Of a DNA stretch of 64,000 bases, positions 7,165 through 64,000 are shown in pieces; position 1 is the first letter of the stretch, and every line of letters starts with the position of its first letter. Position numbers and translations under genes: made by a program. This stretch comes from Nymphaea colorata (lineage: Eukaryota): assembly GCF_008831285.2 (NCBI RefSeq), contig NC_045138.2, positions 16,864,001-16,928,000 of the forward strand, written 5' to 3'. The notes under the pieces were generated by a model. That model was not told the origin of the DNA. It did not search any database and saw only the letters and a list, made by a program, of their open reading frames with translations.

Positions 7165-7254
7165 TGTTAAGTTCTAAACCTCATTTTACAGATAATAGGA
7201 CGACTTATAATTGGGTTGAATTTGAGATGAAGAACTGGCGATATGCCTTATAGC

Positions 7255-27888: not shown

Positions 27889-28321
27889 ATGGCCGCCACT
27901 GCTGCTGCAGCAGTCCAGGGGCTAACGAGGGTTAGGTTCTCTGAGCTTCGGCCCCAACTTTCTGATCAGGTTCTTGGAGTTCTGGAAGAGGAGGGGTTCG
28001 AATTTTGTACCCCCGTTCAGGTCGCTACTATCCCCTTGCTCTGCTCGTTCAAGGACGTTTGCGTCGATGCCGCTACCGGTTCCGGGAAGACCCTCGCTTT
28101 CGTCGTCCCACTCGTCGAGATCGTCCGCCGAGCCACTGCCCAGCAACCCCTGAAGCCCCACCAGGTTGGTGGTCCACCACCCGCTTGATTTCATCTTTGC
28201 TAGTTCTGTGAACAATGTTCTATGGGCATTCAATCTTTTCTCTGTAGTGGAGGTTTTAGTTAACGGCTCAATTTCTGTTATTATTGTTGGCTTTCTGCAT
28301 TTGTGATTGAGTTCGGTGATT

Positions 28322-28363
<42 letters not shown>

Positions 28364-34640: not shown

Positions 34641-35167
34641 TAGAGAATGATCAACAACCCCATCTCAATGTCACTGAAATAACACTCCTCAGCCTCGCTC
34701 TCAATGCCATCAGGAAAAGAGCACAAGACTCAAGATGATGGTGCCCACGAAAATCAAATCGAACGTCTCGATACGTGCCTCCTTCCCAACCACCTACGCT
34801 ATTCATTCTCATCTCCCCTATTGAGCATTAGAAGAATAGAAAAACGAGTTCAACTCTTGTCCATATCTTGGCAGAGATGACGTGGATTCTTTGACCTGTG
34901 TGAACAAATGGGAAAGGAACTGAAGGGTTCAACTCTCTCTATCCGTCTCTCCAAGATTCAAGCATGGAGGCGTACGCACGGTCAATATTCCAGCAAGGTG
35001 GGGTTACCTACCACCGCCTCAGCCCTCGATTCATAAATCTCCCAGCCCACCTCTCCATTGCATGCATACTGTATAGCTTCATATAGTTGAGTCCCCAACT
35101 CCATATTGCCCATATATAGTTGAATCAGCCCAGAGAGAGAGAGAGAGAGAGATAGAGCGAGAGAGAC

Positions 35168-35280
35168 ATGGCGACAACAATCCAAGGGAAGGTTAGAACA
35201 TCATGTACCCAGGTCATGGTGGTTGCCCTACTCGTCTTCCTCCTTTCTGCCTCCTCCATGGCCGAAGGCTGCAAAGGTAG

Positions 35281-35324
<44 letters not shown>

Positions 35325-36204
35325 CCTTCCGTTTGTGGCTACTCAAGAGAGAAAGGAAAATAACATTAACAATAACATTAACATAAGTCCAACAAAAAGT
35401 TGAACTTGAAAAAGATTACATCTACAAATCAGCTCTCAATTCGTGTATGAGGTTGAAGGTACCAGTAGTTCCCCATAGGTTACGGGAAATTAACCAAACG
35501 TCATACAAAATGGAGGAAGCCATCCGTTCAACTGAAACCGCCTCATTTCTATAAATAATGTCATTTCTAGAGTTCCAGATGACCCACCAAAACGTAAAGA
35601 GCCAAATTCTCCAAATGGTGCATCATTTCTTTTTGTTTCTCACTCTAGTTGGTCCATGGAGCAGGTCCCAAACCAACAGTTTGAGGCTTTTTAGCTCTAA
35701 ATTTTAGCATGTCCTTAGGAAACCATATTGAGTTCTTTGCTCTTAAATCTGTCAGCACGTAACATATCACATCGCCACAGAGCCACAAAACAGCCAGTAT
35801 ATCAGACTGCAAGCCTTCTACGTTTATGAACTGAATATTAGAGTTGCATATTGCTACGTTGATCAGATTCTGTATCATGCGTGATCAAGATCCGGGTTTG
35901 TTTCTAAAGTTGCACTAAAGCGGAGACTATTGGCAACTATATGTACATAGACTGACAGTTCTTGCTATGACCAACTGCGTTCTTCTTTGAATTGATCGAT
36001 TTTGTAGGGAAGAATTCATGGCCGGAGCTGGTGGGCAGGGATGGATCGACGGCCGAAGCCATCATCAAAGCCGAGAATCCATATGTGAAGATTGTCGACA
36101 TAGTGCCGGAAGGCTCTTTCGTTATTCAAGACTTCCGCTGTGACCGGGTCTTCGTCTGGGTTAAGCCCAACAACACCATCTACCTTACCCCGAAAATCGG
36201 GTAA
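35168..36204 (+). CDS. Potato inhibitor I family (I13/PR-6) serine protease inhibitor #1, 101 aa with signal peptide
   Basis: Exon1 35168-35276 (ends GCK-G, phase 1), exon2 36008-36204 GKNSWPELVG...EGSFVIQDFRCDRVFVWV...TPKIG*. Confidence 0.92.
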
Positions 36205-37965: not shown

Positions 37966-38595
37966 TAGAACATGTTTGGGTTGGTAACTTGAGAGCCAAT
38001 GCCCTGGACAGTGTACCTGGCCGTTCCACCAGGCTCTGTATGGGCTGCAGACCAGGCTGCTGGTGGCACCAAAATGGTGATGTGGGTGTCGACGGCATGA
38101 TCATCAACATTGCTAGCATGTTGGCTGACATCGTCACCAACCCCTACAAGAGTGGCCACTTCCAAGGGACACCTACTGTTCCTCTAGAGGCAATGCCGGC
38201 CTGTGTAGAAATATACGACAACCGCATAAGCTTGGATAAGCGTTCTTGCCGTGTATCCCTGCACAGGCCGATGCTGCCTCTAGCGAAGCACTAGTCATTC
38301 CTTGAAAGTAGGCGCTCTTGTAGGGATTGGTGTCCATACCAGGCAACATGCTAGCAATGTTGATGATCATTCCGTCGACACCCACATCACCATTTTGGCG
38401 CCACCAGCAGCCTGGTCTGCAGCCCATGCAGAGGCTAGTGGAATGGCCAGGCGCACTGTCCAGGGAATTGGTTCTCAGAGTTAGCAACCCAAACATGTGC
38501 TAACTTTTCACCGTTAGTCAACAGGAGGGCAGAGTCATGGAGGCTGCAACCGCTAATGCAGAATCCCTCCACTGCAACATCCTTGGATGCGAGTG
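37966..38595. pseudogene. EXORDIUM/PHI-1-derived inverted repeat A (arms ~37966-38220 and ~38246-38502)
   Basis: Both strands encode frameshifted [21 protein letters not shown]...[19 protein letters not shown]....TNP....FQG....PLEA..AC. Arms are reverse complements around a ~25-30 nt loop. Confidence 0.92.
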
Positions 38596-39222
38596 ATGTC
38601 GTTTTAATCAATAAATTAAAATAGTGTCCTTTCAGTAAAAAGATGACAATGTGGCATACCATGCCTATTTGGATGATGGACCTTGAGCGATGCAAAATAT
38701 TGATGTCATATCATGATTTAGCTTGCAGATTTTGTTTAATTTGAATGCATGGTAGTAAGGCATTTGTCTGTGAGCATTGGAGTTAGTATTTTCATTGGGA
38801 GAACAGCTATTAGAGAAGCATTCGTCAAGCAAAGAAAACAAAGGAAAGAGTGGGACGAAGAGAAATACTTTAACTAGCATTCTAGCTAAATCACAAAAGC
38901 AAGGAGAGGAAACTTTGTTGGTTAAAGAAGGCCGATTCTGATCCAATTTATAGTAGAGAAATGGGGTCAGTCTAGAAACTAGAGATACCTTCACAAGGAA
39001 GGAAATTGAACCAAATGAAGCAATTGTGGATGTGAAACAATCAATCCATTTTCTTTTTGCAGGTTTATTGCCTTATTATACATTAATTTTGATTCATGCA
39101 CCATATATAGGATTAGATTGGTAGCTAAGTTGAAGAGATCCTTCCATATATGTCCACGTCCAATATCTATAGAGGAAACAAATAAGATACTTATATGTTG
39201 ATTTCTCATGGCATTTTCCTTG
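38596..39222 (-). promoter_or_regulatory. Repeated leader/promoter cassette upstream (minus strand) of hairpin A
   Basis: Homologous to 41095-41885, 52325-53135 and 63450-63812. Minus-strand CTATAAAT at 38953-38946; putative GT-AG intron 38868-38629. The repeat is certain; promoter function is inferred. Confidence 0.5.
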
Positions 39223-40367
39223 TAACTCAAACTCAAACTCATTTATAACTTGATTTTAACTCGATCTCGAGCTCAACTCCTGTATTAAACGAGTCGACCT
39301 CAGGTGAAGTTTTCACAAACAAGTTCGAGTAGAGCCTCAGTCATTTTACATCTCTAAAATCAGGGTTAAACTTAAAAGACTATCAGGTAGAAGAAGATCA
39401 GCGGGTCGATATTCAATGTGTAATGACTCCGAACGACTTAATGGAGGAAGAAGCTGGAAAGTTGATGAAAGAAAAAGAATGTTTGGCAGCTGCCAACAAT
39501 GTGTAACTTTTATAGTTGTCTAGAACGGCTTGGTGGATCCGATTCCTAATAGCTCGGAAATATGTGAATTCAAATAAAAATAAGTGTTCAAGTAGACACT
39601 GGGATCCTATTTAAATTATTGCAACCGTATAAAATTTAGATGTGCATTTTGAGATGGGTATTAAAATAGCAAGTACTTCAGTTGAAATTTACTTATGTTG
39701 GATTGTAAACGGTGGTTTAAGTATGCTATGGTTCTAATTTGTAGTTGGTCAACTACACTGAACTCGTGGAGGTCATGGACTACTGCAATTATTTGTGGAT
39801 GGTATGAAATCATGTTACTTGTTTTTGTATGTCCAGTACTTAGATGCAGTCGATGTTGATAAATGCATAAACTGTGTGTTGCAAGATCAAGTCACGACCA
39901 TTCTCTTGTTTCTTCTTTTAGTTAACAGATATCTTAGATTGTTGTTTAACTGGATTGGATTGCATTTGGTTTCATGTTTTAATGGAAGAGGTGTTGTAGC
40001 TTCATTTTTTTACGTATTGGATGCTTCTTGCTTAGGTTTAAACCTCTGTAGTTTGTTGTTTTTAAAGATCATCTTTCAATTTGTATTCACGTGAAATGGA
40101 AGGAGAACGAAAAAAACAACTTCTAACGGTCAGGAAAAAAAGTCATTCATGTATTGTACCATGTGCACAAAAAACAGTTAATTTTACCTTGTAAAAAACT
40201 ATCATGTGCATCAAACACAGTTAATTTTACCATGTAAAAAACTACTATGTCATTAAACAGGGCCTCAAATTGGAAGAGGGAAAATTTTCATCCTTTATTT
40301 TTTTCCAGCATTCTTTTTCATAGTAAATTTATCACGATAAACACTTTCCTATCATCAAACGGGGCTT

Positions 40368-41092
40368 AGATGACAAGTATTCAACGGACAACACACTCAA
40401 AAGGGCACAAACAGGGAAGCTGGCTGCCAAGGCCGCCACCATTAACGGCATCACACTTGTGCTCACTGGTAGCTCTGAGAACCAATGCCCTAAACAATGC
40501 GCCGGGCTGTTCCACCAGCCTCTGTATGGGCTGCAGACCAGGCTGCTGGTGGCGCCAAAATGGTGATGTGGGTGTCGACGGAATGATCATCAACATTGCT
40601 AGCATGTTGGCTGACATCGTCACAAACCCCTACAAAAGCGGCCACTTCCAAGGGACAACTATTGTTCCTCTAGAGGCAATGCCGGCCTGTGTAGAGATAT
40701 ACGACAACTACCCCGCATAAGCTTGGATAAGTGTTCTTTCCGTGTATCCCTGCACAGGCCGATGCTGCCTCTAGAGAAACACTAGTCATTCCTTGGATGT
40801 TGGCGCTCTTGTAGGGATTGGTGGCGATACCAGGCAACATGCTAGCAATGTTGATGATCATTCAGTCGACACCCACATCACCATTTTGGCGCCACCAGCA
40901 GCCTGGTCTGCAGCCCATACAGAGGCTGGTGGAATGGCCAGGCGCACTGTCCAGGGCATTGGTTCTCAGAGTTAGCAACCCAAACATGTGCTAACTTTTC
41001 ACCATTAGTCAACAGGGGAGCAGAGTCATGGACGCTGCAACTGCTAATGCAGAATCCGTCCACTGCAACATTCTTGAATGTGAGCACAAAGA
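40368..41092. pseudogene. EXORDIUM/PHI-1-derived inverted repeat B (arms ~40468-40703 and ~40741-40975)
   Basis: Plus arm begins with DDKYS..TLKR...KLAAKAATINGITLVLT-like sequence and lacks ~105 nt. Minus arm encodes VAVDGFCISSC..HDS...[23 protein letters not shown]. Loop ~37 nt. Confidence 0.92.
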
Positions 41093-41094
41093 GT

Positions 41095-41885
41095 GATGGT
41101 CGTTCTAATCAATAAATTGAACAAGTGTCCTTTTAGTAAAAAGATGACAATGTGGCAAAATATGTGAATTTAGATGGTGGGTGTTGATGGATGAAAATAT
41201 TGATGCCATAACATGATTTAGCTTGCAGATTTTGTTTGATTTAAATGCATAAGGTATATGGCTATGAGCGTTGGAGTTTAGAATTTTCATTGGGAGGTAA
41301 GGTGTCAGAGAAGCATTAGTCAAGCAAAGAAAACAAAAGAAAGAGTGGGACAAAGAGAAATACTTAACTAGCATTCTACCTAAATCACAAAAGCATGAAG
41401 AGGAAACTTTGTTGGGTAAAGAAGGCCGATTGTGATCCAATTTATAGTAGAGAAATGGGGTCAATCTAGAAACTAGAGGTACCTTCACAAAGAAGGAAAT
41501 TGAACCAAATGAAGCAATTGTGGATGTGAAACAATCAATCCATTTTCTTTTTGCAGGTTTATTGCCTTATTATACATTAATTTTGATTCATGCACCATAT
41601 ATAGGATAAGATTGGTGGCTAAGTTGAAGAGATCCTTCCATATATGTCGACGTCCAATATCTACTGAGGAAACAAATAAGATACTTATATGTTGATTTCT
41701 CATGGCATCTTCCTTCTAAAGAAGATTTAAGTGCACAACCAAGGATTTATGAAGTTCAGAGAAGGCCTTAACATGCAGGCAGCTGGTCAATGGCTTCAAA
41801 TCCAACTGTAACCCCTTTCAAAGTAGAGCCTCATCTTGCTTGCCTAGGTACTTCACACTTAGGTAGCGCTTGGCAGCACTTGGAA
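41095..41885 (-). promoter_or_regulatory. Repeated leader/promoter cassette upstream (minus strand) of hairpin B
   Basis: TATAAAT minus 41446-41440; putative intron 41363-41130. Confidence 0.5.
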
Positions 41886-41958
41886 TAAGCATAAATGCCT
41901 TCTCCAAAATGTGAGGGGGTACCATGGCCCCTGCTAGCCTCCCCTTCTGTCAGCCAAT

Positions 41959-41997
<39 letters not shown>

Positions 41998-42085
41998 ATG
42001 ATGCTGGGTTTGCACTTAATAAGGACAGAGAATCTAAGGTGGTCTTGCACCCGAATGTCTTCAGCTTTTTCATTGAATCCGGCGC

Positions 42086-42175
42086 TCATAAATTAGCTTG
42101 AAACTGGGTTTTATGTAATAATATAACGCTAATACTTAATGAATAAATGAGCCTTAGTGGCATGATTATGCTTTA
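42086..42175 (+). pseudogene. Orphan 3'-UTR remnant of a potato inhibitor I gene
   Basis: ctcataaattagcttgaa..ttttatgtaataa..taatgaataaatgagccttagtggcatgattatgcttta aligns with the 3' UTRs at ~59270-59366 and ~54760-54805. No coding exon in front. Confidence 0.65.
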
Positions 42176-42522
42176 TTAGATCAGCAAAATCAGAAAATCA
42201 ATAAAATTTAGCAGAAACAAATAATTAACAAAGGAGGACAATAATTGAAGCAAAGAAAAAGAATTATTGATTGAAGGTGCTGATCTTCTTAAGAAATGAT
42301 ATTATCTGAATTAAGATATAGTTGAGATCCCAGTTCAGGGAAAAAGGAAATTAAAAAAGAAAAAAAGAAAAAGAAGATTGAACATTGTCACATGTCCCAT
42401 GATGAAAGGATGACAGCAACCTGCAAATTATTGTCAAGAAAAATAAAAGCATAAAGAAGAGGTGCTGAATTAGGAAAGGAAAACACCTAAGTCCAGTTGA
42501 GATACATGAGGGCTGATGTGGA

Positions 42523-42716
42523 CTTGGGCGGAGTCAAGTTAGGGCCCGTATGGGCTGTGGTTTCACCTCAATTTTTTTTAAAAAAAATTACATATAAATT
42601 TTAAAAATATTCATTTGTTTTATATAAAAATTTTGAAGAACGATATTTCGGTTCTAGTCAAAATTTAAAAACTTTAATTCAGTTCGCCTCCTGAAAAATT
42701 TCTCACTCTGCCCCTG
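42523..42716. mobile_element. hAT-type MITE (CAGGGGCGGAG-type TIR); related relics at ~3588-3753, ~8500-8660, ~63822-64000
   Basis: Ends cttgggcggag / ctctgcccctg; 8-bp TSD gatgtgga at 42515-42522 and 42717-42724. Confidence 0.7.
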
Positions 42717-44662
42717 GATGTGGACGACTGCCCTCGCAGGCGACTCCAGTGCCCCTTAGCTAAAAAAATCTTTGCTCCACCATTGCCAAAGTCCTATCTA
42801 GCAAGTCCCTGTGAAGACTGAAAAAAAAGGAGGAGGTGGGAGGAAATACTAAATTAACCACTGTGAGTTTCTATCATGAAGAATAAGTGGATGCCTTCTA
42901 AAACAAGTTCCTGAATGGATCCGGCCACATGATGCCGTGCTGATACCCAACATTTTACTTTTAAATCTGAAACAAATTGAGCCCAATCCTAAATCAGTTA
43001 ATGTTTAATTTAAGATTCAAGTTGTTATTGACTTCAATAATATTTCACCGTTACAAAAAAAAAAAAAAAATGTTAACGAAATATAGATATATGTGGATCT
43101 GTCTTTTCTGTTTCATTGACAAGATTAAATCTCGGTATTTTTTGTTCATAATGACACAAACTATCACAGAAAGTAAATGGTTGGCACAATAGATGTGGTT
43201 CATATTTTGGGTGAGCAAGAGGGAATCCCACTATCCCAGCGAGAGGCCAAAGTCCTCTCTCCATTCCCCTTTCTCCTGCTTTATCTAGAGTTGTTTCAAG
43301 ACTTGGGTGGACTTACGATACACTCTTCCACTCGATTGTTGTGCATGTCATATAGTTTGATGTCTAAATGAGTCAAGCATCCATAAGCATCCATGAGAAT
43401 CGAGTTGATGACACATTAACAGCACAACGCTCAAGCCAACCATTTATGCTATGCCCCTGTGGGTTCATATTTAACATGTCATGGTTCAAACAAAACATGA
43501 ATGATCTGAGTTCCTTAGACATATATATATATAGAGAGAGAGAGAGAAAGAGAGAGAGAGATATGAAACGAACTGAATTAAATGAAACCAATGTACAAAA
43601 AGTGTATAAAGATACCACCAACTCAAGTGGAGACACTATAAGGCAGCAACACATTCATCAAATCATGATAAGTGGTTATCCCTTATGATGAAATAAACAT
43701 CAGTGAAAACCATGTATTCAAGTATTGAATGATTGCATGCTGCATTCCAAAAAAAAAAATATCATTTCTAACAGTCCAAATCCACAACCAAAGTCCAAAC
43801 AGCCAGACCTTCTAGAGACGTCTCCACCATTTAGATTTTAAGAATATGCTTTGGCGGAAATGTCTCCACCTTTTAGATTTACAAATATGCTTTGGACCAA
43901 ATAATAAATTTCTAGCCAACGACCAAGTACATACTGTTGGTGGAGAGAGACAAAAAGAGAGAGAATAAATTTCTAGCGAAGGTCCAAGTACACAATGTCG
44001 GTGGAGAGAGAGAGAGAGTAGCATTGAGACATTAAATCCAACAAAATGTTGAAAAGAAGAACACTTACATCTAAGACTTAACTGTTGCAAAGACAGACTA
44101 CCATTACTCCATAAGTTACTAGAAATCAACCAGACCATATAAAATGGGTGATGCAATATACAACCCCGTTCGTATAGCAACTAATCCACTTAAAAAGTAA
44201 AGTAAACAACTAAATTCTCCAAATGATACTGTCACATTTAGAACAACTAACAACTTTATAATGAAATGAAAGGGAAAAAACGAAAAAGGTTCATCACTTA
44301 TCAATAAGTTTGGAGATAAGGTTGAGGGAAAAGTTCAGAGGCGGCCGACAAGACAGGGAGGTATGGAGGCAGAGTAGGGCGGCGGCCAACGTGACAGAGT
44401 GGTTAGTGCCTTCGCCGCTGTGAAGGGAGAGGAAATCTCAAGGTTCATCTCTCTCTCTCCCTCAGTAACATTCAAACACGGAGGCTGATGTACAGTCAAT
44501 ATTGCAGCAAGGCGGGGAGCTGCTTGCCAGGTACTCAGCTGCCCTCCATCTATAAATCAACCAACCCACCACTCCATTGCTGCATTGCCTGTAGTTGAAT
44601 CGAAACCCCCAACTCCATTGTTGTAGCTCCGATCGCCCACAGAGACAGGGAAAGAGAAAGCG

Positions 44663-45310
44663 ATGGCAGCCACAATCCAAACCCGAGTCATGGGGATTGC
44701 CCTGCTCTTCTTCTTCCTCCTTTCTGCCACTTCCATTGCCCAGGCCGCCACCTGCAAAGGTATTGTACTCTCTCTCTTGCAACCTTATTTTCTTCAGCCG
44801 GTCGGCCTACAGAAGAAAACCAACAGTTTGGGCCTTTTGGACTTGTCTAAAAAACTTAATCTGCACTTTAAGAAACCATCATGAATTCTTTGCTCTTTAA
44901 GTTTCTTAGGAGAGAACAGTGAGCATATTAGAATACCGCATCGCTTCGAATGTGACATTTATGAACTATTCATGAATTCATAGTTGCATCTTCGTCGTCT
45001 GCAAGATCATGTCCAAAGTTGCAGTAGAGAGAGAGACGTATTGGCAACTATGAATTATTTAAGTCACTATTATGATCAACTTCTTCTTTGAATTGAATTG
45101 ATGGGTTTTGTAGGGAAGAGCGCATGGCCGGAGCTGGTGGGCAAGGATGGGTCGACTGCGGAAGCCATCATCAAAGCGGAGAACCCTCGTGTGAACTTTG
45201 TCTTCCCCGTCACAGAAGGCTCTACTGTAAGGAAGAATTTCGACTGTCGACGAGTGTTTGTCTGGATTAAGCCCAACGGCAAGATTTACCTTGTTCCGAG
45301 ACTCGGATAG
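44663..45310 (+). CDS. Potato inhibitor I family protease inhibitor #2, 97 aa
   Basis: Exon1 44663-44759, exon2 45114-45310 GKSAWPELVG...EGSTVRKNFDCRRVFVWI...VPRLG*. TATAAAT 44551-44557. Confidence 0.92.
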
Positions 45311-47587
45311 ATCACCCGTTAGCCTTGCTCTCAGGATCTGCTTATTGTCAAATATGTCAGCCTCCTGTACTAGTAATTAAGGCTCTTGCAATGTAATATA
45401 ATAAAGCTCGATGCTAATGAGAAATAAGCCTACATATTGCCAATATGATGAAGTACAATCTTGTTCTTGCTGGCAAAGTTTGTAGTTTTCCTTTTTCCTT
45501 TTTCATTCCTTACCTGAAGGCAATGGAATTTCATGATCAAGAGCAGCAACTTAAATGAAATGGGACGATAATGGAGTCCTGTGGGTTAACTTTCAATCCA
45601 GATACAGATTCAAGTTGCCCAACTACAGATTACAGTCCTCTAGAACGATCGGATTCACGGTGATCAATTAAGATGGTTGGTTTCGAATCTGATCTCAGGA
45701 AAACAAAATTGACAAGGCCGCAAATTACAAGTCAGGTTTCTGACTACCCATAAGTCGTGGCCCAATGTCCACTTTTACTTTTATGTCAAGTTCCTCCATG
45801 AATTCCTGGATGAATCCAGAACCTGCCATTATATACACGATATTTTGCTGATTTCATACAGAAATCAAGTTGAGTCAAATACCGATTCGGTTAACGTTCT
45901 AAGCTCAAGTTGTTATTTTCATCGTTATAAAACAAGGTCAGGCTATTTATTAAACAAATATATTACGTTTGGATCTATATGCTTTGTTTTCGCTCAAAAA
46001 TGAACTCGTGCTGTTAATTTGTTGTTCATGTTTATACATTACATGGTTCACATGCAAGATGTTGGCATAATGCTACTCATATTTTACAAGAAAGCATGGA
46101 CCCGATACCCAGCGCGAGTAGGGCTCGGGCCTGGAAAAAAGACACCAGGCTGACTCGGGTGGACTTCATAATTTTTTTAATATTTATGTAATTAATTTTT
46201 ATATCTAATTACAATATTTTATTATAATTAATTATATTTATATAATATTTTATATTAAAAATATATTTTTTAATTTAAGTGGACCGAACCCCATCCCATG
46301 TTTCGAGTATCGGCCAGCCTGATGTCCAGGCGTAATTGTTTAATTGTGAGAATATGATGTTTTCTTTCTTCGTCAAATGTCACATTGCCAAAATGGTCTA
46401 AGGATTACGTTTCCTTTAGAAGTAATCTATTTGACCTTAATAAAGTTTCTGGTCCGGCGCTTCTGCAACAAGGTAAGGTGATTAAGCTTTCCCTTTCAAT
46501 CCGGTGTTCAACGTCGTTGTAACTCAAGTGAGTTGATTCTGTTCAACGTCGTTGTAACTCTTATCTTGTAATAATTTGTATAGAAGGTAACCAAGACCAT
46601 GACATTTACTCAGATTTATATATTTAAGCTCTATCCTTGATATATATATATATATAAGAGAGAAAAAGTTAAGCTCTTAAGAATGTGACATTTAAAACAA
46701 GTCATAACTTTAAGGACGGTCACATCCAGAACAAGTCAAGACTTTATAATGAAAGTCATAACATTTAAATGAAAAGAAAAAAAAAAGAAAGGTTCACCTC
46801 TGATCCATAGGTCTGGAGATAAAGTTAACGGACAAATTTGAGGGGATGCCAGGATGATGTGAGAGAGCCGATAAAATGGAAATATAAAACAAAATTTGGG
46901 GACAAGAGGTCTTTAATTACAAAAACAATCCGCAAAGAACAAAATTACGCAAAAAACACAAGCAGAGGAACAAATATACAATACAATGCACAGAAAAATA
47001 AGAGAAAAGAGGAAAGGCGAAACGGCACAGTCACCCAACCACAGTCAGGCGGCGGCGCTTTAACCGAATGGCGAACTGGATATCTCTTTGCACAAGACGA
47101 GCCACAAAATCTGGTGAAGAGAAGGTGCCCCTGAAGACCATGTTGTTGTGCTCCATCCAAATGCGCCACATTGAAAAAAACGGAATTGTGGGGGCGTCAC
47201 ATTGAGAGAGAGAGAGAGAGATTTATAATGAAAAAAACAAAAGCGTCACATTGAAGATAAAATTGTGGGGGCGGCGACAGGGAGGTGCGGGAGGCCAAGT
47301 ATGGAGCGACCCACATGACAGAGAGGTTGGAGGCCTTCGCCGGTGTGAACGTAGAGGAAATCTCAAAATTCATATCTCTCTCTCTCAAAAGAGCATTCAA
47401 ACATGGAGGATGAGGTACGGTCAATGTTGCAGCAAGGCGGTGGCTGGTTGCCAGGGACTCAGCTGCCCTCCATCTATAAATCAACCAACGCACCACTCCA
47501 TTGCCACATTGCCTGTTGTTGAATCGAAACCCCTCAACTCCATTGCTGTAGTTCCGATCGCCCACAGAGACAGGGAGAGTGAAAGCG

Positions 47588-48227
47588 ATGGCAACCACAA
47601 TCCAAGCCCGAGTCATGGGGACTGCCCTGCTCTTCTTCTTCCTCCTTTCTGCCTCTTCCATTGCCCAAGCCGCCACCTGCAAAGGTATGTAGACTCTCTC
47701 TCTCTTGAAAACTTATTTCCTTCAGCCGGTCGGCCTACAGAAGAAAACCAACTGTTTGGGCCTTCTGGTCTTCTCCCAAAAAACTTAACATGCACACTAA
47801 CAAACCATCATGAATTCGTTGCTCTTATGTTTCCTAAGATAGAAGAACAGTGAGCATATTAGAGTACTGCATCGCTTCGAACGTGACATTTACTTGCATC
47901 TTCCTCGTCTGCAATATCATGTCCAAAGTTGCGGCAGAGCGAAGACGTGTTGGCAACTATGAACTATTCTAGTTACTGTTATGACCAACCAACTGTGTTC
48001 TTCTTTGAATTGAATTGATGGGTTTTGTAGGGAAGAGTGCATGGCCGGAGCTGGTAGGCAAGGATGGATCGACTGCAGAAGCCATCATAAAAGCTGAGAA
48101 CCACCGTGTGAACTTTGTCTTCACCGTCCAAGAAGGATCCTCTGTAATCCAGAATTTTGACTGCCGACGGGTGTTTGTCTGGGTTAACACACACGGCAAG
48201 ATTTACCTTGTTCAGAGACTGGGGTAG
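47588..48227 (+). CDS. Potato inhibitor I family protease inhibitor #3, 97 aa (recent tandem paralog of #2)
   Basis: Exon1 47588-47684 (MATTIQARVMGTALLFFFLLSASSIAQAATCK), exon2 48031-48227 ...EGSSVIQNFDCRRVFVWV...VQRLG*. TATAAAT 47475-47481. Promoter, intron and UTR are alignable with #2. Confidence 0.92.
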
Positions 48228-48989
48228 ATCACTCTTTACTCTTCCTCTCAAGATGTGCTTATAGTTAAAATAAGTGAGCCCGTTGTACTGGTAATTAAGT
48301 CTCTTGCAATGTAATAATAAAGCTTGATGCTAAATATGAGAAATAAGCCTACACACTGGCAATATTATTGATTATAATCTTAAGATTCTTGCTGGCAAAA
48401 TTTATAGTTTTTCTTTTACTTTTTAATTTATTACCTCAAGGCAGTGGGATTTCATGATCAAGTGCCGCAACTTAATCGGACGAGGTTTCAGTCCTGTGAA
48501 ATTAATCTGCGCCCTCATGATTTCATGGCTTAAGATCCAACATTTTCATGCAACGTTGCTCAGATATTTCTCGTCGGGTTCAGTTCTGGATTCAGATCTG
48601 AACGGATGCAGATGCAAAGCTGCAACTGCTATCAAATTGACAAGGCGCGCTCTTTCATCATTAATTAACCGTTCATGCATATTGATCAATTAAGCTTAGT
48701 AAACAGAGATTAATTCGTTTTGATTTTCAACAGAGATTAATAAATTAAGTGGGATTACTAATTGGCGGAGGGTGGTCTGAAAAAATCTTGAAATGAGGAG
48801 ACACACTCTAGATGGTCGGAGCTGCATTCAGCAAATGTGCTCGGAAAAAAATGTAAAGTGAATTCGAGGGTGACGATTCAATGTGCATTTTTTTTTTTGG
48901 CGCAGAGGGAAACGCACATATAACCGGCTTCTGATCAACTACGGAATTCACTGTCCATGTAGAAATGGCTTGACTCAGACCGTGTTGTG

Positions 48990-49592
48990 CATTAATCCAG
49001 TTTTCAACTACTTCCTGAGCTCTCTTAGCTACCAGGAGAAGAGCCCTTCGGTGCCCTCTTAGAGGTAGAAGGTCGTATGCTTAGGCAAGGCCGGCCAGGA
49101 TCCGCCATGGCGGTGCTGCGAAAGCATAACTAGATGACAAGTACTCACCGGACAACTCACTCAAACGGGCACAAATGGGGAAGCTGGCTACCAAGGCCGC
49201 CACCGTCTCTTCTGCTCATTTCTAAGGATGTGTCAATGGAGGGATTCGGTATGAGCACCTGCGGCCTCCATGACTCTGCTCCCCTGCTACCTATTGCAGA
49301 AAGATTCGCATATGTTTGGGTTGCTAACTCTGAGAGGCAATGCCCTGGACAGTGCGCCTGACCGTTCCACCAGCCTCTGTATGGGCTGCAGACCAGGCTG
49401 CAGGTGGTGCCAAAATGGTGATGTGGGTGTCGACGGAATGATCATCAATATTGCTAGCATGTTGCCTGGTATCGTCACCAATCCCTACAAGAGCGTCCAC
49501 TTCCAAGGAATGACTAGTGCTTCTCTAGAGGCAGCATCGGCCTGTGCAGGGATACACGGCAAGAACGCTTATGCCGGGTAGTTGTCGTATAT
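48990..49592 (+). pseudogene. Longest EXORDIUM/PHI-1 pseudogene remnant; its 3' half forms the outer left arm of hairpin C
   Basis: [87 protein letters not shown]. Stops and frameshifts; 3' end missing. Confidence 0.88.
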
Positions 49593-51334
49593 CCAAACAA
49601 ATTCTTGAATCATGTTCCCTTTCAATTTAATCATACTTGCGACAAGTTGCCAATGCCATTCACCAGTGAAGGACCACCTTCTATACGACGGTTAAATTTT
49701 TTTAGCATGGAATACATGGCCATTAAATGTTGTGGAGCACTCAAGGTTAGTTTCTCTGCCAAGTTCGCTTGTGAGGAGCTTCTTGGAACTATCCTAGAAA
49801 GCCTTGTGGTTTTATGTACCCCAACTGAATATACGATCCGAGTCTAATGTTTGATCTTATCCAGAATCTACCCATATCTTTCTTAAATATGAAGTCTTTC
49901 ATACTATTTATCTTGAATTTTTTGCAATACAATGAAATTGACATAACTTTATACGTTCAAATACGACTGTGAACTATTCTCTTAAACGAATACGACTGTG
50001 AACTATTCTCTTAAACAAGTGAAAGACATTTTTACAGTCGTATTTGAACGATGATGACATTATCTGCAGGCTTGTGGACCATCGCTTTGCTTCTCGATTA
50101 CCAGAGCAAGGCAGACAGAGAGTTTTGCCATGACAAGAAGTGTCTGCTCAAAATCGGTGCATTTCTCGGCCTCATCTTCCCCAATAAACTCGGGGCCGAT
50201 CTTGAACTCATGTTGGCATATAAATCTCCTTTGCTGATACAATTTTCAAAGGAACGCCCGTAATGTCTCGAAGCCTCACCAACAACAAAATATTAATTAT
50301 TTCAGTGCTGACCATTTGCCGGGAAAATCTTAACAAACATATTTTATGACTATAGCAGATTGAATTATTTGCTTATAGGACAGTTCAAATCTGCGGAATG
50401 CTGAATGTTGCGGGATAATTAACGCTATGTTTGGATGAGGCCGACAAATGCACCGATTTTGAGCAAACACTTCTTGTCATGGCAAAACTCTCTGTCTGCC
50501 TTGCTCTGGTAATCGAGAAGCAAAGCGATGGACCACAAGCCTGCAGAAAATGTCATCATCGTTCAAATACGACTGTAAAAATGTCTTTCACTTGTTTAAG
50601 AGAATAGTTCACAGTCGTATTCGTTTAAGAGAACAGTTCACAGTCGCATTTGAACGTATAAAGTTATGTCAATTTCATTGTATTGCAAAAAAATCATGAT
50701 AAATAGTATGGAAGACTTCATATTTAACAAAGATATGGGTAGATTCTGGATAAGATCAAACATTAGACTCGGATCGTATATTCAGTTGGGGTACATAAAA
50801 CCACAGGGCTTTCCAGGACAGTTCAAAGAAGCTCCTCACAAGCGAACTTGGCAGAGAAACTAACCTTGAGTGCTCCACAACATTTAATGGCCATGTGTTC
50901 CATGCTAAAAAAATTTAACCGTTGTATAGAAGGTGGTCCTTCACTGGCGAATGGCAACTTGTCGCAAGTATGATTAAATTGAAAGGGAACAGGATTCAAG
51001 AATTTGTTTGGATATACGACAACTACATTGAAAGGGAACAGGATTCAAGAATTTGTTTGGATATACGACAACTACCCCGCATAAGCATTCTTGCCGTGTA
51101 TGCCGGCTGCCTCTAGAGAAGCACTAGTCATTCCTTGGAAGTAGGCGCTCTTGTAGGGATTGGTGACGATACCAGGCAACATGCTAGCAATATTGATGAT
51201 CATTCTGTCGACACCCACATCACCATTTTGGCGCCAGCAGCAGCCCGGTCTGCAGCCCATACAGAGGCTGGTGGAATGGCCAGGCACACTATCCAGGGCA
51301 TTGCCTCTCAGAGTCAAGCAACCCAAACATGTGC
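49308..51334. repeat. Long inverted repeat C: arms 49308-50176 and 50434-51334, loop 50177-50433
   Basis: Continuous reverse-complement match over ~870 bp with scattered substitutions. Outer ~280 bp is EXO-derived, inner ~590 bp is unrelated sequence. 49-bp tandem duplication in the right arm (~50978-51075). Confidence 0.97.
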
Positions 51335-51526
51335 TATTCTTAATGTATTCTTATATCATATAGATGAAGTAAGGTATCTAAAGGCTATTTTTTTAATGTA
51401 TTCTTATTGCAACCGAGTAGGGCGATTTAAGGCGAGTCAAGATCGAGATTCACAGAGTCGGGCCGAGTTAGGAGAGAGTCAGGTTTTACGTCACCCAAAC
51501 CGGCAATTGACGTACCTCTTTCACTT

Positions 51527-52322
51527 AAAATACTGTTTGAGGAAGAAGATTTGCATTTGTTTGCACAGAGAGTTGAGGCCCATGAAAAATCCAATTGGGC
51601 AAAACAGAGTTGCCGCCACGGTTAACGGCATGAGGCTTCACCCTTGTGCCCACATCTAAGGACGTCGCAGTCGAGGGATTCTGCATGAGCAGCTGCGGCC
51701 TCCATGACTCCGCTCCCCTGCTGCCTATTGCTGAAAGATTCGCATATGTTTGGGTTGCTAATCCCGAGAGCCAGTGCCCTGGACAGTGTGCCTGGCCATT
51801 CCACCAGCCTCTGCATCGGCTGCAGACCAGGCTGCTGGTGGCACCAAATGGTGATGTGGGTGTCGATGGAATGATCAACATTGCCAGCAAGTTGCTTGAC
51901 ATCGTCACCAACCCCGACCAGAGCGGCTACTTCCAAGGGATGGCCACTGCTCCTCTAGAGGCAATGTCGGCCTGTCTTATCTCCCTGCACAGGCCGACGT
52001 TGCCTCTAGAGGAGCAATAGACGTCCCTTGGAAGTAGCCGCTCTCGTCGGCATTGGTGACGGTGCCGGCCAACGTGCTAGCCATGTTGATGACCATTCCA
52101 TCAATACCCACATCAACATTTGGCGCCACCAGGGTCTGCGGCCCATACAGAGGCTGGTGGAATGGCCAGGCGCACTGTCCAGGGCATTGGTTCTCAGAGC
52201 TAGCAGCCCAAACATGTGCTAACTTTTCACCATTAGTCAACAGGAGGGCAGAGTCATGGAGGCTGCAACCGCTAATGCAGAATCCCTCGACTGCCACATC
52301 CTTGATGCGGGCACAAGAGTGA
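51527..52322. pseudogene. EXORDIUM/PHI-1-derived inverted repeat D (arms ~51638-51975 and 51989-52322, 13-nt loop)
   Basis: Plus ORF 51646-52020 and minus ORF 52297-51977 both encode the VAVEGFC..C..HDS...[12 protein letters not shown]...DVG.DGM...GYFQG...APLEA.SAC segment. Neither has the EXO N- or C-terminus. Confidence 0.93.
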
Positions 52323-52324
52323 CG

Positions 52325-53135
52325 TCTTTTTAATCAATAAATTAAAATAGTGTCCTTTCAGTAAAAAGAAGACAATTGTGGCACACCATGTTAATTTGGA
52401 GAGGATGGGCCTTGAGAGATGCAAAATATTGATGTCATATCATGATTTAGCTTGCAGATTTTGTTTAATTTGAATGCATGGTAGTAAGGCATATGTCTAT
52501 GAGCATTGGAGTTAGAATTTTCATTGGGAGAACAGGTATTAGAGAAGCATTCGTCAAGCAAAGAAAATAAAAGAAAGAGTGGGACATAGAGAAATACTTA
52601 ACATTCTAGCTAAGTCATAAAAGCGAGAAGAGGAAACTTTGTTGGGTAAAGAAGGCCGATTATGATCTAATTTATAGTAGAGAAATTTGCTCAATCTAGA
52701 AACTATAGATACCCTCGCAAGGAAGGAAACTGAACCAAATGAAGCAATTGTGGATGTCAAACAATCAATTCATTTTCTTTTTGCAGGTTTATTGCCTTAT
52801 TATACATTAATTTTGATTCCTGCACCATATATAGGATAAGGATTGGTAGCTAAGTTGAACAGATCCTTCTATATATGTCCTCCTCCAATATTTATAGTGG
52901 AAACAAATAAAATACTAGTAATGTTTTAATTCCATTTATATGTTGGTTTCTCATGGCATCTTTCTTTTAGAAGAAGACTGAAGTACACAACCAAGGATTT
53001 ATGAAGTTCAGAAAAGGCCTTAACAAGCAGGCAGCTGGTCAATGGTTTCAAATCCAACTGTAACCCCTTTCAAAGCAAAACCTTTGCTTGCCTAGGCAAG
53101 GCTTGACACTACTTAGGTAGTGTTTGGCAGCACCA
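52325..53135 (-). promoter_or_regulatory. Repeated leader/promoter cassette upstream (minus strand) of hairpin D
   Basis: TATAAAT minus 52676-52670; putative intron 52597-52355. Confidence 0.5.
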
Positions 53136-53990
53136 GGATTAAAATCCTAAGATCAAAATCTCAAGATTTTAATCCAGGATGTGTTTGCTTTCCTAGACTT
53201 TGTTATAATGGATGTCTATCTAGTGTCTGTTAAATGTTTGGAAAAAAAATTAAAACGTTATATAAGTTTGATTCTTTGTCGGTCATAAAAGTCTATTCTC
53301 CAAATCTCTCTTTCATTGTTTTGGGATCTAACACATGAAGGCAACCTTTCCTTTCCTCCAGTTTATCACCGAACCCGTTATGTGCACCTCATTGTGGACT
53401 AGAATTTGTGCACAGGAGAGTACGATGACGAAAATACCTCCAGTGAAAGGGGAAAAAAAAAACTTTTATGTAAAAAAGAATTGTGAAAAAGTAAAAAAAA
53501 AAAAGTCTAAATACCTATTATCTGTATAAAAAATTTCACTACACCCTCCACCCACTTTGGTGTATACTTATATTTATCACCGGGCAGGGCTCTCTCTCTC
53601 TCTCCCCATCTCTCTCCCTCTAATTTATGAGCTCTCACTGATATGTGAGAGAAAGTAGGAGAGCCACCCCTTCATCATCTGCAACCTTATCATCAGCGGC
53701 CAGTCGTCACCGGTATGAACATAAAGAAATTAGACAAAAAAAGCACCAAAAGGAACTGATGAAAAACGACGATGCGAACTACCAAGAAAGTCGCACGAAA
53801 GAAATTAATTAATGGGCCCAAATCTCTCTCTTCCCTTCAGTTCAAGCATGGAGGCGCGCGCACGGTCAACATTCAAAAGTGGTCGGCGAAAGGTAGGCAA
53901 GTTAAGCAGCTGGTTCGAGTTATAAATCCCCTTAACCAGGAAGCCCTTGCTCTACGTAGCTGAATGCAGGAGGCGGAGAGGGAGAGAGAA

Positions 53991-54275
53991 ATGGCAACAA
54001 GCAAAGTTGTCTTATCAGGTGTCCAAGTCATGGCGGTACTGGCCGTACTCTTCTTCCTACTTTCAGGATCATCCATGGCTGCCGACTTTTGCCAAGGTAT
54101 ACATATAGTTCAACTACTCAATAGATGGTATCAATTGCTCACGCCAATGTACATCTGGTTCCGCCAATATATATACTTATATATATATAGTGATGGTAAG
54201 CCATAAAATGCATCTCTTTGCATGCTGTGATTCATCTATCACCATCAATATTATCCATATACATAAGGATTTTGT

Positions 54276-54326
<51 letters not shown>

Positions 54327-54692
54327 ATAGTAAGCCATAAACTGTATCTCTTTGCATGCTGTGATTCATCTATCACCATCAATATTATCTGTATACATAA
54401 GGATTTTGGAAAAAGAACTTGCAGCGTAAGATTACTGATCTCAATTGTAGCATGTTGCTCCTGTTCTTCTTACTAAGAGTATGCTCCTATCGCAGGCAAG
54501 CAGTCATGGCCGGAGCTGGTTGGACAGGCCGGAGAAGTTGCTGAGCCCGTGATCAAAGGGCAAAACCCTTTTGTGAAGGATGTTATTATTGTCCGGAACG
54601 ACACAAAGCTAATTGAAAATTTCCGCTGCGATCGGGTCTGGATCTTTACTAACCCTGACGGCACCATTAGCAGGATCCCAACGGTTGGTTAG
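53991..54692 (+). CDS. Potato inhibitor I family protease inhibitor #4, 100 aa
   Basis: Exon1 53991-54096, exon2 54496-54692 GKQSWPELVGQAGEVAEPVIKGQNPFVKDVIIVRNDTKLIENFRCDRVWIFTNPDGTISRIPTVG* (not in ORF track). TATAAAT 53921-53927. Confidence 0.92.
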
Positions 54693-57499: not shown

Positions 57500-59227
57500 A
57501 TGGCAACAAGAATGCAAGGGAAGGTGAGGCCGCCATCATGTGCCCTGCTCATGGGGGTGGCCCTGCTTTTCTTCTTCCTCCTTTCCGCCTCCACCATGGC
57601 CACCGACTGCAAAGGTATATTTTAATGTGTCTTCTTTGTTCGAACTTTAGGCCGTGTTTGTTTGCCTCGGATTTCATGGGGGAGATCCAAAGTAAAACAA
57701 AGGACTGATCTCAGCAAACCCACGAGAGGGCAGCAATCCACGAATTAGAGATCAGACACCCCTGCGTCTGATCTCTGTCGTGGATCTCACATCCCCACGA
57801 GTCGTTAAGCTTGGGCTCTCCTGCCATGCTTGTCGACCAACCTCCTGTCGGTGGCTCTCTCTCCACCAAATAACCAGTGATAGAAAAACGATCTGCGGGT
57901 TTAAAAAAGAAAAAATTGGAGCCCTTGGCACTGCAAGGGTTTGAGAAAACATGTTTTAGAAGAGAGAAAGGAAGAGACGTCGATTCTCAGACTGCCGGAA
58001 ACACACCTGAGAGCTCCGAACCTCACCCTTTTTTAAAAAAAAAAATGATTACTGCCAAGGGTTTCAAAAAAATAAAATACCTCGGTGTAACCCTCAACAC
58101 TGCTGAGTGTTTCAGAAATTTCAAGGATAGCGCAGAGACGGATGGAGATGACGGCTGGCTGGAAGATCTACCCTCCTCCCCTGCCGGAGAAAAGTACCTG
58201 CGACTTTATCTTTCTTGATCTGCACGCCTAGGAGGCGGGAAAAACAAGAAACAACAACCTTGACTACCATGGCGGTCAAGGTCAAGATAGATAGAAAAAG
58301 GGGACGGGAGAGAGAGAAAAAGAGTCCGCAGTCGACCATGAACTTGCAGTCGAGTATCAAGCTACGGTCAACAAAAGCTTGGCTTTTAAGACCCTCCGAT
58401 TTTAGATCAATCCTGGATCTAATATCCATGGGCATCAAATCCGACCTTTGTGTTTGATGATTTGCAATTCCGATTCAACAATAAAAATTTCAAAATCGTA
58501 GTACCTCTTCAAACTGTAGTGGAATCAAAATTCCTGATTTTAGTTTCTTTAATTCCAGAAACAAAATAGATCGTTTGTTTTATAATTCTAATTTCTTAAA
58601 AATTCAACATTTTGACTCTCAAAATTCTGTATATCAAACACCCCCAATGCCCAGACATGCATCGGCACATGCATGTAAAATCTTGACTTGTTGTGGAACC
58701 TGTCAATTTTGATTATGAGCACTAGTTATATAATTTTAAATTTTTAGAGGCACTGTACAGAAATGAAAAAAAGGGTTCATGAAATTTCAATATGAAAATA
58801 AACACTTTTTGTGGGTTTGTGTGGCCAATTGCCCACACCTTCCTCCGCCCCTGCCCTTAAACATTTTTCCCTGTATCTTCACCAAACATGCTTGACATTT
58901 TCATGCATTGCATGTCCTTAATGCATTAATTCATTGGCCTTATGTACATGGCTATATTCTCCTCACGCATTTTATATTAATAGAGCTACTTGTTGTTTTC
59001 TGCTTATAGATTAACTGTGTCTTAACACAGGGAAGGAGTCATGGCCGGAACTGGCGGGCATGGATGGACAGGTCGCTCCCCCCATTATCAAAGCTCAGAA
59101 TCCTTATGTTACGGATGTTCCCATTGTGAAAGAAGGCACCGTGGTTATTTTGAACTTCCTCTGCAACCGTGTTCGCGTCTGGGTTAAGCCCAACGGCACC
59201 ATCTACGAGCCACCCACCATTGGCTAG
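57500..59227 (+). CDS. Potato inhibitor I family protease inhibitor #5, 103 aa
   Basis: Exon1 57500-57614 (MATRMQGKVRPPSCALLMGVALLFFFLLSASTMATDCK), exon2 59031-59227 GKESWPELAG...EGTVVILNFLCNRVRVWVKPNGTIYEPPTIG*. 1416-nt GT-AG intron; TATAAAG 57402-57408. Confidence 0.9.
57650..58645. mobile_element. One or two adjacent Tourist/PIF-like insertions in the intron of inhibitor #5
   Basis: tta|GGCCGTGTTTG at 57650. GTGTTTGAT ~58450 pairs with ATCAAACACCCCC ~58633-58645. GC-richer interior; TSDs not clean. Confidence 0.45.
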
Positions 59228-59974
59228 ACGTTCCCGTTCATGTTTACAGGTCTCCAGCTGCTTACGATCTTCATAAGTTGGCCTGAATATGAGGCTTTTA
59301 TGCAATAACGTATTGCCGCTTAACTGATAATGAATAAATGTGCCTCAGTGTCGTGCTTATGCTTTACTTCCCATGAGAATCGAACTAGTGGCTGGTCTTA
59401 TAGTAACTGCTTATAGTACCGAGCCCCCAAAAGTTTACAAGACTACTTCATCGAGAGTTCAAGATTTGGTTCCAAGACTTGTTTGAAAATAAACTAACGA
59501 CCAATACGCACTAAATTATATAGAATATACCTTTCTAGAAAAACCTATCCAATTAATTACTTTATTATTGTTAAACGTTGAGTACAGAAACGATTTCCAA
59601 ATTAATTGATTTTTCCTTTTACTTACAAGTAGGCGTATTCTCAAATTTGAAGGCTAATTTCTCACAAATAGTCAAGGAAGGCACTTTTGACATTCGGCGT
59701 CTAAGGCATGAAAGCATGATGTAAATTACACTTACATGAATAGAAAACTACCGCATGAGGAAGAAGCAGGTGTGCTCAAGATCATTTTGAGGAGGACCAA
59801 TCAATCTAGTGTTCAAATGCATCAAAACTTTGAGAAACGGAGCAACAAACAGGGGAGATTATAGATAAACCATTGCAAGTTTTAGTCAAGAACTATTATT
59901 TTCTCAATCCCCACATTGGTTGTTAGGTAGATTGTTCTCCAATATGTAAACTATGAGATTTTGTACGGCCAGTA

Positions 59975-62135: not shown

Positions 62136-62139
62136 CTAT

Positions 62140-62425
62140 CAGTTGATTGTCATCTCTGAAGATGGTTTTGTGAGTCTTCTGACTGACAGGGAAAACCATA
62201 AAGATGATTTTTGACTTCCAACTGATGAAAATATGGCTTTGTGGGTCTTTTGACTGACAGTGGATGCAACAAAGATGATCTACAACATTCCACCGATGAA
62301 AATCAGTTTGCTCAGGTGATATTGTCCCATCTTCCTACCGTAATGATGTTCCCTGTGTTACTCATTCTGATTGTCAATTGATTGACATCTTTGAAGATGG
62401 TTTTGTGAGTCTTTTAACTGATAGT
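62140..62425 (+). repeat. Three imperfect direct repeats immediately after the MUSTANG truncation
   Basis: gatggttttgtgagtctt..actgac/tag at ~62161, ~62233 and ~62396. Confidence 0.7.
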
Positions 62426-63449
62426 TGAAGCATGAAATAGTGACTGCACTGGTCAAACTCAAGTGGGATAAGTAGTGCTGAGAAGACAAAGCCATCTTAC
62501 TCCAGCCACTTGGGTGACTGATTTGGTCTTGTCTCTTTCTTCCATGTCCATTGCTAAGTATTGGTTATTTTCAGTTGTCATTCACCAAATACAGAAGGAT
62601 ATAGTGACATTGTCCACTGAGCCCGCCAAACTCTGTTCATAAAGTTCTTACAATTAGTCAAATTGAATTGTTCAAGCTTTCCAAATCTAAATGAAACATT
62701 GTCCATATAATAAACGTTGGAGGTAAATAAGTTCATCAAGATTGGATAATAGTTGGACAATTTAGATGTTTAATGCATATTTGAATATTTTGACACTCAT
62801 TTGCTTTTCTTTTAATGTGTAATATGCTTTTGACTTCTATTGGAAATGACTTATGTATGTAGATGAAGCAAAGACATTTAGAATTTTTTTCTTGTTCATA
62901 TATACAAAGGGTGATTCAAATCTGTCAAATGTTTGATTTTCTAGATGGCTATAAATTAAAAATCCATCTCTAAAAATATCATGAACCATTGATAAAAGCA
63001 TGATGAACCACTGTCACACTACAAACCACCGTTAATACTCTTGTGATGACTTCTGGTAACAATTTTTTTCTTTTAGCCATGCAACAACATTCAATAGATT
63101 TGAACTCTCTTATGTATGTACTATTTCACTTAATGTATAACATAAACACATATTCTTGGAGTAGAGCAGGGGCCTTAGTTGCCATGATTCATCTAAAATT
63201 GAGGCTTAGACCAAGGTATGCTTCATCCATATATTTAGTCAAAGACCAGTTTCTCTACCCAGGTCCTCCAACCCCCCTACCCCCTTTGTATGCAGCAAGG
63301 GCCTGTTAGCCACAACGCATATACGAAGAAGGGTCTGTTAGACATAGCTCAAAGACGAAGGAATGGAGTGATTATGTACCTCAAGTTTATATGTTTGAGT
63401 GGTGAAAAAATTCAATAAGAAAGCTACAATTTTGAAAATAAAAAATAGC

Positions 63450-63812
63450 TCATCGTTTTAATCAAACAATGGCAACTTTCAGTAAGAATATGACAATTTG
63501 GCAAAAGATGATGGGCCTTGAGGGATGCAACTATTGATATTATATCATGTTTTAGATTGTAGAGATTGCATGCATTGTGTAAAAGCACATATCCAAGAGA
63601 GTTCCGTTTGAGCTTTTCATTGGGAGAAAAAGTGCAAGCGAAGCATTCATCATGCGATAATTCCAATTACCAAGAGTACAATTGAAACGAAACAAAAGAA
63701 AAAATGAAGCGAATAGAAATACCTCACTAGCTTTATGAATAACAGATCCTGAACAGATGCTTCTCCATATCATATAATAAGAGGAAACTTTGTTGTGTAA
63801 AGAAGGGTTATG
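63450..63812 (-). repeat. Diverged fourth copy of the hairpin leader cassette, without hairpin or TATA
   Basis: Shares ctttcagtaa, gggccttgag.gatgcaa, ttttcattgggaga, gaagcattc, gaaatac and gaggaaactttgttg..taaagaagg with the three cassettes. Confidence 0.7.
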
Positions 63813-64000
63813 CCATATTCTGCAGTGGTGGAGCCAAGAATTTTTGCCAAGAGACACTCCTTTAAAAGACACATTCATTTAGGTGCACCTTATATGTGAA
63901 TAGGCAAATAATTGCAAGGCACCAATATAAAATTAAAGAAAAATTTAATTTGGGGCTGGCGTGGGCAACTGCCCACGCCACCTATATGTAACTCTACTAC

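Follow-up and report, generated by a model that had tools for sequence, protein, structure and literature searches.

Results

We analysed a 64,000-nt stretch of Nymphaea colorata DNA (NC_045138.2), referred to below as the window, to whose positions all coordinates refer. It holds a cluster of inverted repeats built from fragments of EXORDIUM/PHI-1 (EXO) genes. A profile search of the window recovered exactly eight EXO arms and four copies, all on the minus strand, of a non-EXO block with a TATA box and a predicted leader intron, here called the cassette. Cassettes A, B and D point into hairpins of the same letters, cassette E carries no hairpin, and hairpin C has no cassette. Our best reading is that A, B and D may form a small family of endogenous inverted-repeat (endoIR) loci, of the hairpin small interfering RNA (siRNA) or proto-microRNA (proto-MIR) kind, with a build like that of soybean GmIRCHS.

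The proximal arm of hairpin A (38236..38597, minus strand) is a frameshifted sense fragment of EXO/PHI-1, and its distal arm (37966..38221, plus strand) would be antisense in the predicted RNA. Hairpin B consists of a proximal arm at 40727..41097 (minus strand) and a distal arm at 40367..40707 (plus strand), the latter with a more 5' piece of EXO and an internal deletion. The proximal arm of hairpin D lies at 51989..52323 (minus strand); its distal arm (51605..51975, plus strand) is an in-frame Phi_1 fragment (PF04674), the Pfam match by which the arms can be traced to EXO. The stems measure 237-330 bp with 84-87% complementarity, and the predicted exon 2 forms one long stem in each copy. Predicted folding energies were -444 kcal/mol for A and -565 kcal/mol for D, and none of 20 shuffles was as good. 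In the predicted spliced RNAs, the first open reading frames (ORFs) encode 2-29 amino acids and differ among the copies, and the longest (78-107 amino acids) lie inside the stem. These short, unshared ORFs rule out a coding product, and the original prediction of a long fold-back in exon 2 of a non-coding RNA was supported, no ORF being conserved.

Hairpin C (49010..51341) has two EXO arms flanking a ~570-bp non-EXO inverted repeat, and both of its outer flanks are of the distal type. The inner repeat, with 549 matches, 18 mismatches and a 257-nt loop, appears much younger than the stems of A, B and D.

All motifs that had been proposed for a TATA-exon-intron cassette beside A, B and D were found in the window at the claimed coordinates. 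The sequence TTTCTCTACTATAAAT occurs three times, on the minus strand only, with the TATA at 38952, 41446 and 52676, and the acceptor motif likewise occurs three times on that strand alone. The non-EXO block, claimed to span 600-800 bp, measured 629 bp (A versus B) to ~790-820 bp (B versus D), and EXO homology starts ~32 nt past the acceptor, in line with the ~35 nt claimed. Cassette A (38598..39225, minus strand), delimited by self-comparison and motifs, comprises an upstream block, a TATA box (38946-38952), a predicted start near 38919, exon 1, a predicted leader intron of 240 nt (38629..38868, minus strand; AAA/GTATTT ... TGAAAG/, slashes marking the splice sites) and a 31-nt spacer. On the same strand, cassette B (41098..41888) has its TATA at 41440-41446, a predicted start near 41413 and a predicted intron of 234 nt (41130-41363), and cassette D (52324..53142) has its TATA at 52670-52676, a predicted start near 52643 and a predicted intron of 243 nt (52355-52597). 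The three predicted introns run from GT to AG, start with GTATTT, end with AAAG and contain 34-37% T and 28-29% A. The cassette pattern had no match in metagenome contigs.

Self-comparison revealed the fourth copy, which was missing from the earlier list. Cassette E (63447..63820, minus strand) is diverged, with 66% identity to A over 349 positions, and the profile search of the window found no EXO arm near it. Its initiator block lies at ~63779-63806, its donor at 63722, its acceptor at 63476 and an ATG at 63453. The homology of E runs from the initiator region to TTGATTAAAACGA and ends there, at the point where A, B and D enter EXO and E has its ATG. The intron of E ends ~22 nt ahead of this ATG; introns of plant 5' untranslated regions typically end shortly before the start codon.

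Since the sites had been named from A, B and D alone, E offers a reasonably independent test of them. Aligning all four copies gave 309 ungapped columns, of which 201 were invariant. The best conserved stretch across all four copies is the initiator block (38905..38935 in A, minus strand; 17-47 nt from the TATA start), in which 26 of 31 columns were invariant, versus 0.63 elsewhere (binomial p = 0.0099); only 0.7% of all windows of the alignment reached this invariance. The block at the place of the proposed initiator-like site was thus retained above background in the diverged copy, which would constitute moderate, not decisive, evidence for it. The donor of E reads GAG/GTATTT, and its acceptor AG is kept; all four copies agree at just three of ten GT and two of twelve AG dinucleotides, and both predicted splice sites are among these. 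Retention of the initiator block, the donor and the acceptor AG in E, together with the end of similarity at EXO, suggests that the cassette is probably an older local 5' gene end to which EXO was joined, and the hairpin-free paralog supports the claim that the cassette was borrowed. That it is the true 5' end of a gene on the minus strand we regard as probable. At the switch into EXO, the cassette and EXO share a short look-alike sequence, ATTAA..CG, and this resemblance at the join suggests a microhomology junction.

In place of the TATA of E stands a sequence like a miniature inverted-repeat transposable element (MITE; 63820-64000), the end of which is similar to a further MITE-like end within the window; the displaced promoter of E may lie just past the window end. 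A hydrophobic 37-amino-acid frame (63341-63453) follows the ATG of E, one frame off it, with a donor-like GAG/GTACAT, and is possibly the decayed signal-peptide exon of the donor gene. This frame had no Pfam match and no homolog among proteins of 75-2000 amino acids (one candidate, none scored). The sole full-library match, a chemoreceptor-like protein of a nematode in which a hydrophobic helix is repeated three times (E = 3e-4), was rejected as compositional.

The claim that the same cassette had been joined to three hairpins was not borne out. With the hairpin included each time, unit A (37982-39225) is 90.7% identical to B (40467-41719), unit A (37972-39224) is 83.9% identical to D (51746-52969), and unit B (40477-41888) is 81.7% identical to D (51766-53142). 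The duplicated cassette-plus-hairpin units span 1.25-1.45 kb and are 82-91% identical. This whole-unit duplication rules out three independent captures, and a single EXO capture followed by tandem duplication of whole units is highly probable. Because A, B and D are duplicates with their hairpins, their shared motifs mostly reflect inheritance and give little evidence of function. Invariance across the three was 0.76-0.90 in all cassette segments except the TATA 16-mer, and their longest invariant runs were 49, 27, 26 and 18 nt, the TATA-bearing run ranking only fourth. Upstream of the intron, A is nearer to B (0.96-0.97) than to D (0.90-0.91), and inside the intron it is nearer to D (0.96) than to B (0.81); this switch of nearest copy points to exchange between copies.

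The arms themselves carry traces of a shared history. The closest intact EXO protein, XP_031497745.1 (78% amino acid identity), is encoded on a different, 24.9-Mb contig from the 44.6-Mb contig of the cluster, which places the source and possible target of the arms in trans. All arms of A, B and C carry a frame-breaking insertion of one base in EXO; the two D arms lack it and share one change found in no other arm. A and B share 14 differences between proximal and distal arms, none of which falls within one 100-column tract (permutation p = 0.002). This tract, in which the two arms of the A/B lineage appear to have been homogenised, lies at 38344..38443 (minus strand), with its partner at 38024-38123, and at 40835-40934 in B. 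Arm-to-arm conversion would be the simplest account of it, and the alternative is selection for pairing. This best-paired tract overlaps 15-18 codons without protein-forced mismatch to five of the six Nymphaeaceae EXO proteins tested, a figure that is an upper bound on complementarity, since only protein-forced mismatches were counted. The motif is in any case a conserved one of the family. The mosaic nature of the arms left a tree of their eight cores poorly resolved.

Similar arms occur in another Nymphaea species. With the frameshifted ORF from arm A as the query, three proteins among five candidates were returned, all from N. thermarum. KAF3788985.1 contains the proximal arm in sense and then the distal arm in antisense, which is the minus-strand order of the window. 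KAF3788990.1 and KAF3777261.1 have the same frameshift as arm A, and KAF3788990.1 is apparently on the contig of KAF3788985.1 (both 420,184 bases). One N. thermarum model passes from an EXO arm into the inner sequence of hairpin C. All three 'proteins' are probable mis-annotations of hairpin arms. Their carrying of the arms shows that the fold-back is no assembly artefact and is older than the split of the two species.

The best match of the D distal arm by identity (95%) was XP_031495123.1 of N. colorata, annotated as 'EXORDIUM-like 7'. This protein maps in three pieces across the arms of hairpins C and D (49270-52017). One piece matches at 100% and the others match their own loci, the middle piece is an EXO arm in antisense, and the frame changes; the model is probably a stitched annotation artefact.

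Splice sites were scored with small matrices trained on 15 introns from genes inside the window, with leave-one-out ranges as reference. Among the training genes was an eleven-exon gene (27889-34184, plus strand), which we take from its motifs to encode a DEAD-box-type helicase; its exons join into an open frame of 666 amino acids without internal stops. The minus-strand donors scored 6.6 (A), 3.0 (B), 3.0 (D) and 9.4 (E), within the leave-one-out range of 1.5-11.3, and the donor of E was the top-scoring donor of its block. The T-A skew was +0.07 to +0.18 in all four minus-strand introns and -0.12 to -0.16 in the plus-strand alternative; T exceeded A in 13 of the 15 window introns, and none fell below -0.03. 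The invariant plus-strand donor scored -3.8 to -2.4. The minus-strand orientation of the original prediction is backed by this excess of T, the plus-strand alternative having more A than T and a poor donor. These measures favour the minus strand, with the exact acceptor uncertain.

The stems of 237-330 bp do not have the short hairpin of primary microRNAs (pri-miRNAs), and the extended imperfect fold-back is that of the endoIR or long hairpin siRNA class. The comparison with many pri-miRNAs therefore did not hold, and a long hairpin siRNA or proto-MIR precursor fits better. An Rfam search returned no match at the gathering score, the best weak match being MIR6425 (36.9 bits versus 142), which rules out a known MIR family. 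The arms are homologous to a protein-coding gene elsewhere (Phi_1; XP_031497745.1), as in the target-gene inverted duplication (TID) class.

Five tandem potato-inhibitor-I genes (plus strand; 35167-36204, 44664-45313, 47588-48228, 53991-54692 and 57500-59228), with second exons 58-86% identical, are interleaved with the hairpins. At 60223-62430 lies a Mutator-like element (MULE)-type ORF, frameshifted near 60730 and cut short at its C-terminus, which we take to resemble domesticated MUSTANG genes; repeated eIF5A exon fragments follow directly, and the whole looks like captured gene pieces. A 7.7-kb direct duplication (1-7687 and 11226-18949; 97.8%) contains a small two-exon minus-strand gene (about 2050-2600), presumably similar to the PRE/ILI atypical basic helix-loop-helix proteins; its first ORF had no Pfam match. 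A 121-amino-acid ORF (21450-21815, minus strand), which begins like a signal peptide and contains an SGPS motif, is assumed to resemble PIP secreted peptides; it also had no Pfam match.

Discussion

We lean towards reading A, B and D as a chimeric locus in three tandem copies, each predicted to give a spliced minus-strand hairpin RNA made by RNA polymerase II (Pol II). The cassette would be an older local block, likely an unrelated gene's promoter with its intron-bearing 5' leader; it would have been fused to an EXORDIUM/PHI-1 inverted repeat when an EXO fragment entered immediately before the start codon of that resident gene and folded back, and the chimera would then have been duplicated and partly homogenised inside the cluster. 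Transcription by Pol II would begin ~33 nt past the TATA, and the leader intron would be spliced out. The RNA would fold into an imperfect hairpin of 240-330 bp and be diced into siRNA populations, as long imperfect stems are at endoIRs (PMC10827316). The small RNAs would pair with EXO mRNAs made elsewhere, the best-paired tract being the likeliest source of guides. Judged by their structure, A, B and D likely make hairpin RNAs with a potential to silence EXORDIUM genes. The original prediction of a capped, spliced precursor from a borrowed Pol II promoter was supported as to the borrowed block, the minus strand and the fold-back in exon 2, needs correction as to the pri-miRNA likeness and the spread to three hairpins, and stays a prediction as to capping, transcription and splicing.

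A number of observations weigh against such a transcript. The donors of B and D score just 3.0. The minus-strand acceptors score 0.1, -0.3, 0.9 and -3.5 (leave-one-out range -1.9 to 14.9) and rank at the 45th-77th percentile among all AG dinucleotides, and in A, B and D an upstream AG (38768), absent in E, outscores the predicted acceptor. Four-way invariance of the donor (6 of 6 columns, p = 0.07) and of the acceptor (4 of 4, p = 0.17) is not significant when taken alone. Read on the minus strand, G-U pairs exceed A-C mismatches in all five stems (16:11, 13:9, 20:16, 7:5 and 6:4), a lean towards that strand that is not significant in any stem (p = 0.44-0.77), the stems not being independent. 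The CpG observed/expected ratio is 0.43-0.51 in the hairpins and 0.34 in cassette A; two exons gave 0.86 and 0.94. Such depletion is what long methylation of the DNA would be expected to leave. Pfam and protein homolog searches from E did not identify the gene that donated the cassette. On the plus strand, the look-alike acceptor scores 7.9-11.1 within the longest A/B/D invariant run, and XP_031495123.1 runs through the D distal arm. Maize Mu killer, which like the present loci is a gene-fragment inverted duplication with proposed transcription from a neighbouring gene's promoter and which differs in that its target is a transposon, gave silencing-associated transcripts that start inside the element, contradicting the flanking-promoter model (PMC3440606). 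This result calls for caution in predicting promoters from architecture.

The main rival draws on several of these points. The capture and duplications would be real, and the loci would now be methylated and silent, pseudogene inverted repeats from which Pol II makes no transcript and which give at most self-acting 24-nt heterochromatic siRNAs. Depletion of CpG in both the arms and cassette A, the weak splice scores and the lack of a significant G-U strand bias all agree with it, as does a neighbourhood rich in fragments and insertions, including the broken MULE-type ORF and the eIF5A pieces beside E. Arm-to-arm conversion requires no transcription, and untranscribed DNA could have undergone it. 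Silent debris would not be expected to retain the initiator block above background between E and A, B and D, to keep the TATA intact in all three hairpin copies or to persist as similar arms in N. thermarum, and we consider this account rather unlikely.

Transcription of the plus strand from the left would turn the block into a 3' intron and terminal exon, entered through TTTTTGCAG/G. The earlier caveat that a good plus-strand acceptor lies in the block was well founded: TTTCTTTTTGCAG occurs three times on the plus strand of the window, ending at 39062, 41556 and 52786, and this acceptor ranks at the 99th-100th percentile. The longest invariant run (49 nt; 39047..39095 in A, plus strand) covers it ~110 nt upstream of the TATA. 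A plus-strand GTAA is invariant in all four copies, and the RefSeq model on the plus strand covers C and D. The same model shifts frame and includes one arm in antisense, however, and the donor available to the acceptor is poor. The implied intron is A-rich, with a skew well below the minimum of the 15 real introns, and the left flanks of A, B and D differ. Plus-strand transcription also leaves the conservation of the block 17-47 nt from the minus-strand TATA start without a reason, and it is very unlikely. The least likely account of all makes the block a terminal part of a transposable element (a long terminal repeat (LTR) or DNA element) that supplied the TATA and is common genome-wide. Four copies within 64 kb would suit it, but all of them lie in one tandem cluster in a single orientation and have the EXO junction in common, the block ends coincide with other insertions, and self-comparison of the window showed no terminal inverted repeats or paired LTRs of the block.

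The reading of A, B and D as chimeric hairpin loci has close parallels. In soybean GmIRCHS, the I allele candidate, the 5' part of an unrelated gene lies, as predicted for the present loci, ahead of a target-family pseudogene inverted repeat: the GmJ1 promoter to part of exon 1 precedes a closely spaced tail-to-tail repeat (PMC3406792). GmIRCHS has one perfect 1087-bp repeat, for which double-stranded RNA, siRNAs and a phenotype were shown (PMC3406792), whereas the present loci have three imperfect (about 86%) stems of 240-330 bp and a predicted leader intron. Arabidopsis IR71 and other endoIR-siRNA loci share the extended imperfect hairpin in a non-coding locus and are the suspected starting point of MIR genes; most of those in Arabidopsis are described as transposon-derived (PMC10827316), whereas the arms here come from a protein-coding gene. 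Young MIR genes of the TID class also have arms from a protein-coding family present elsewhere in the genome (PMC9641971). Unlike them, the present loci have long stems and, as far as can be read from the DNA, a promoter other than that of EXO. A, B and D would belong to a known kind of plant locus, unusual in keeping the likely donor block next door. Our literature search found no paper on EXO-derived hairpins; the loci may stand in databases or supplements as species-specific miRNAs (ANAgdb: 141 N. colorata miRNAs).

The separate steps of the proposed pathway differ in strength. Present transcription of at least one copy seems somewhat probable, siRNA output could go either way, and splicing at exactly the predicted sites is put forward tentatively. 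A measurable effect on EXO genes is doubtful. The complete scenario, a family of spliced Pol II hairpin-RNA genes that was born once, amplified, kept pairing by conversion over the most conserved EXO motif and silences EXO/PHI-1 in trans, is improbable as a whole. If the loci make no RNA, they are ordinary duplicated pseudogene debris. One RefSeq and three N. thermarum 'proteins' are flagged as probable mis-annotations.

The promoter origin of new hairpin and MIR genes has usually been inferred from a few single cases. Here, one cluster offers a likely donor block (E), three derived copies and a cassette-less rearranged copy (C), together with a second species. Small-RNA libraries of N. colorata exist (bioRxiv 10.1101/2020.04.25.061721; PMC11437788), and the model is testable on these present data. 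If the complete scenario is true, the cluster would represent a proto-MIR family in the middle of its birth, still next to the donor that lacks a hairpin, and this in two species of an angiosperm genus that diverged early.

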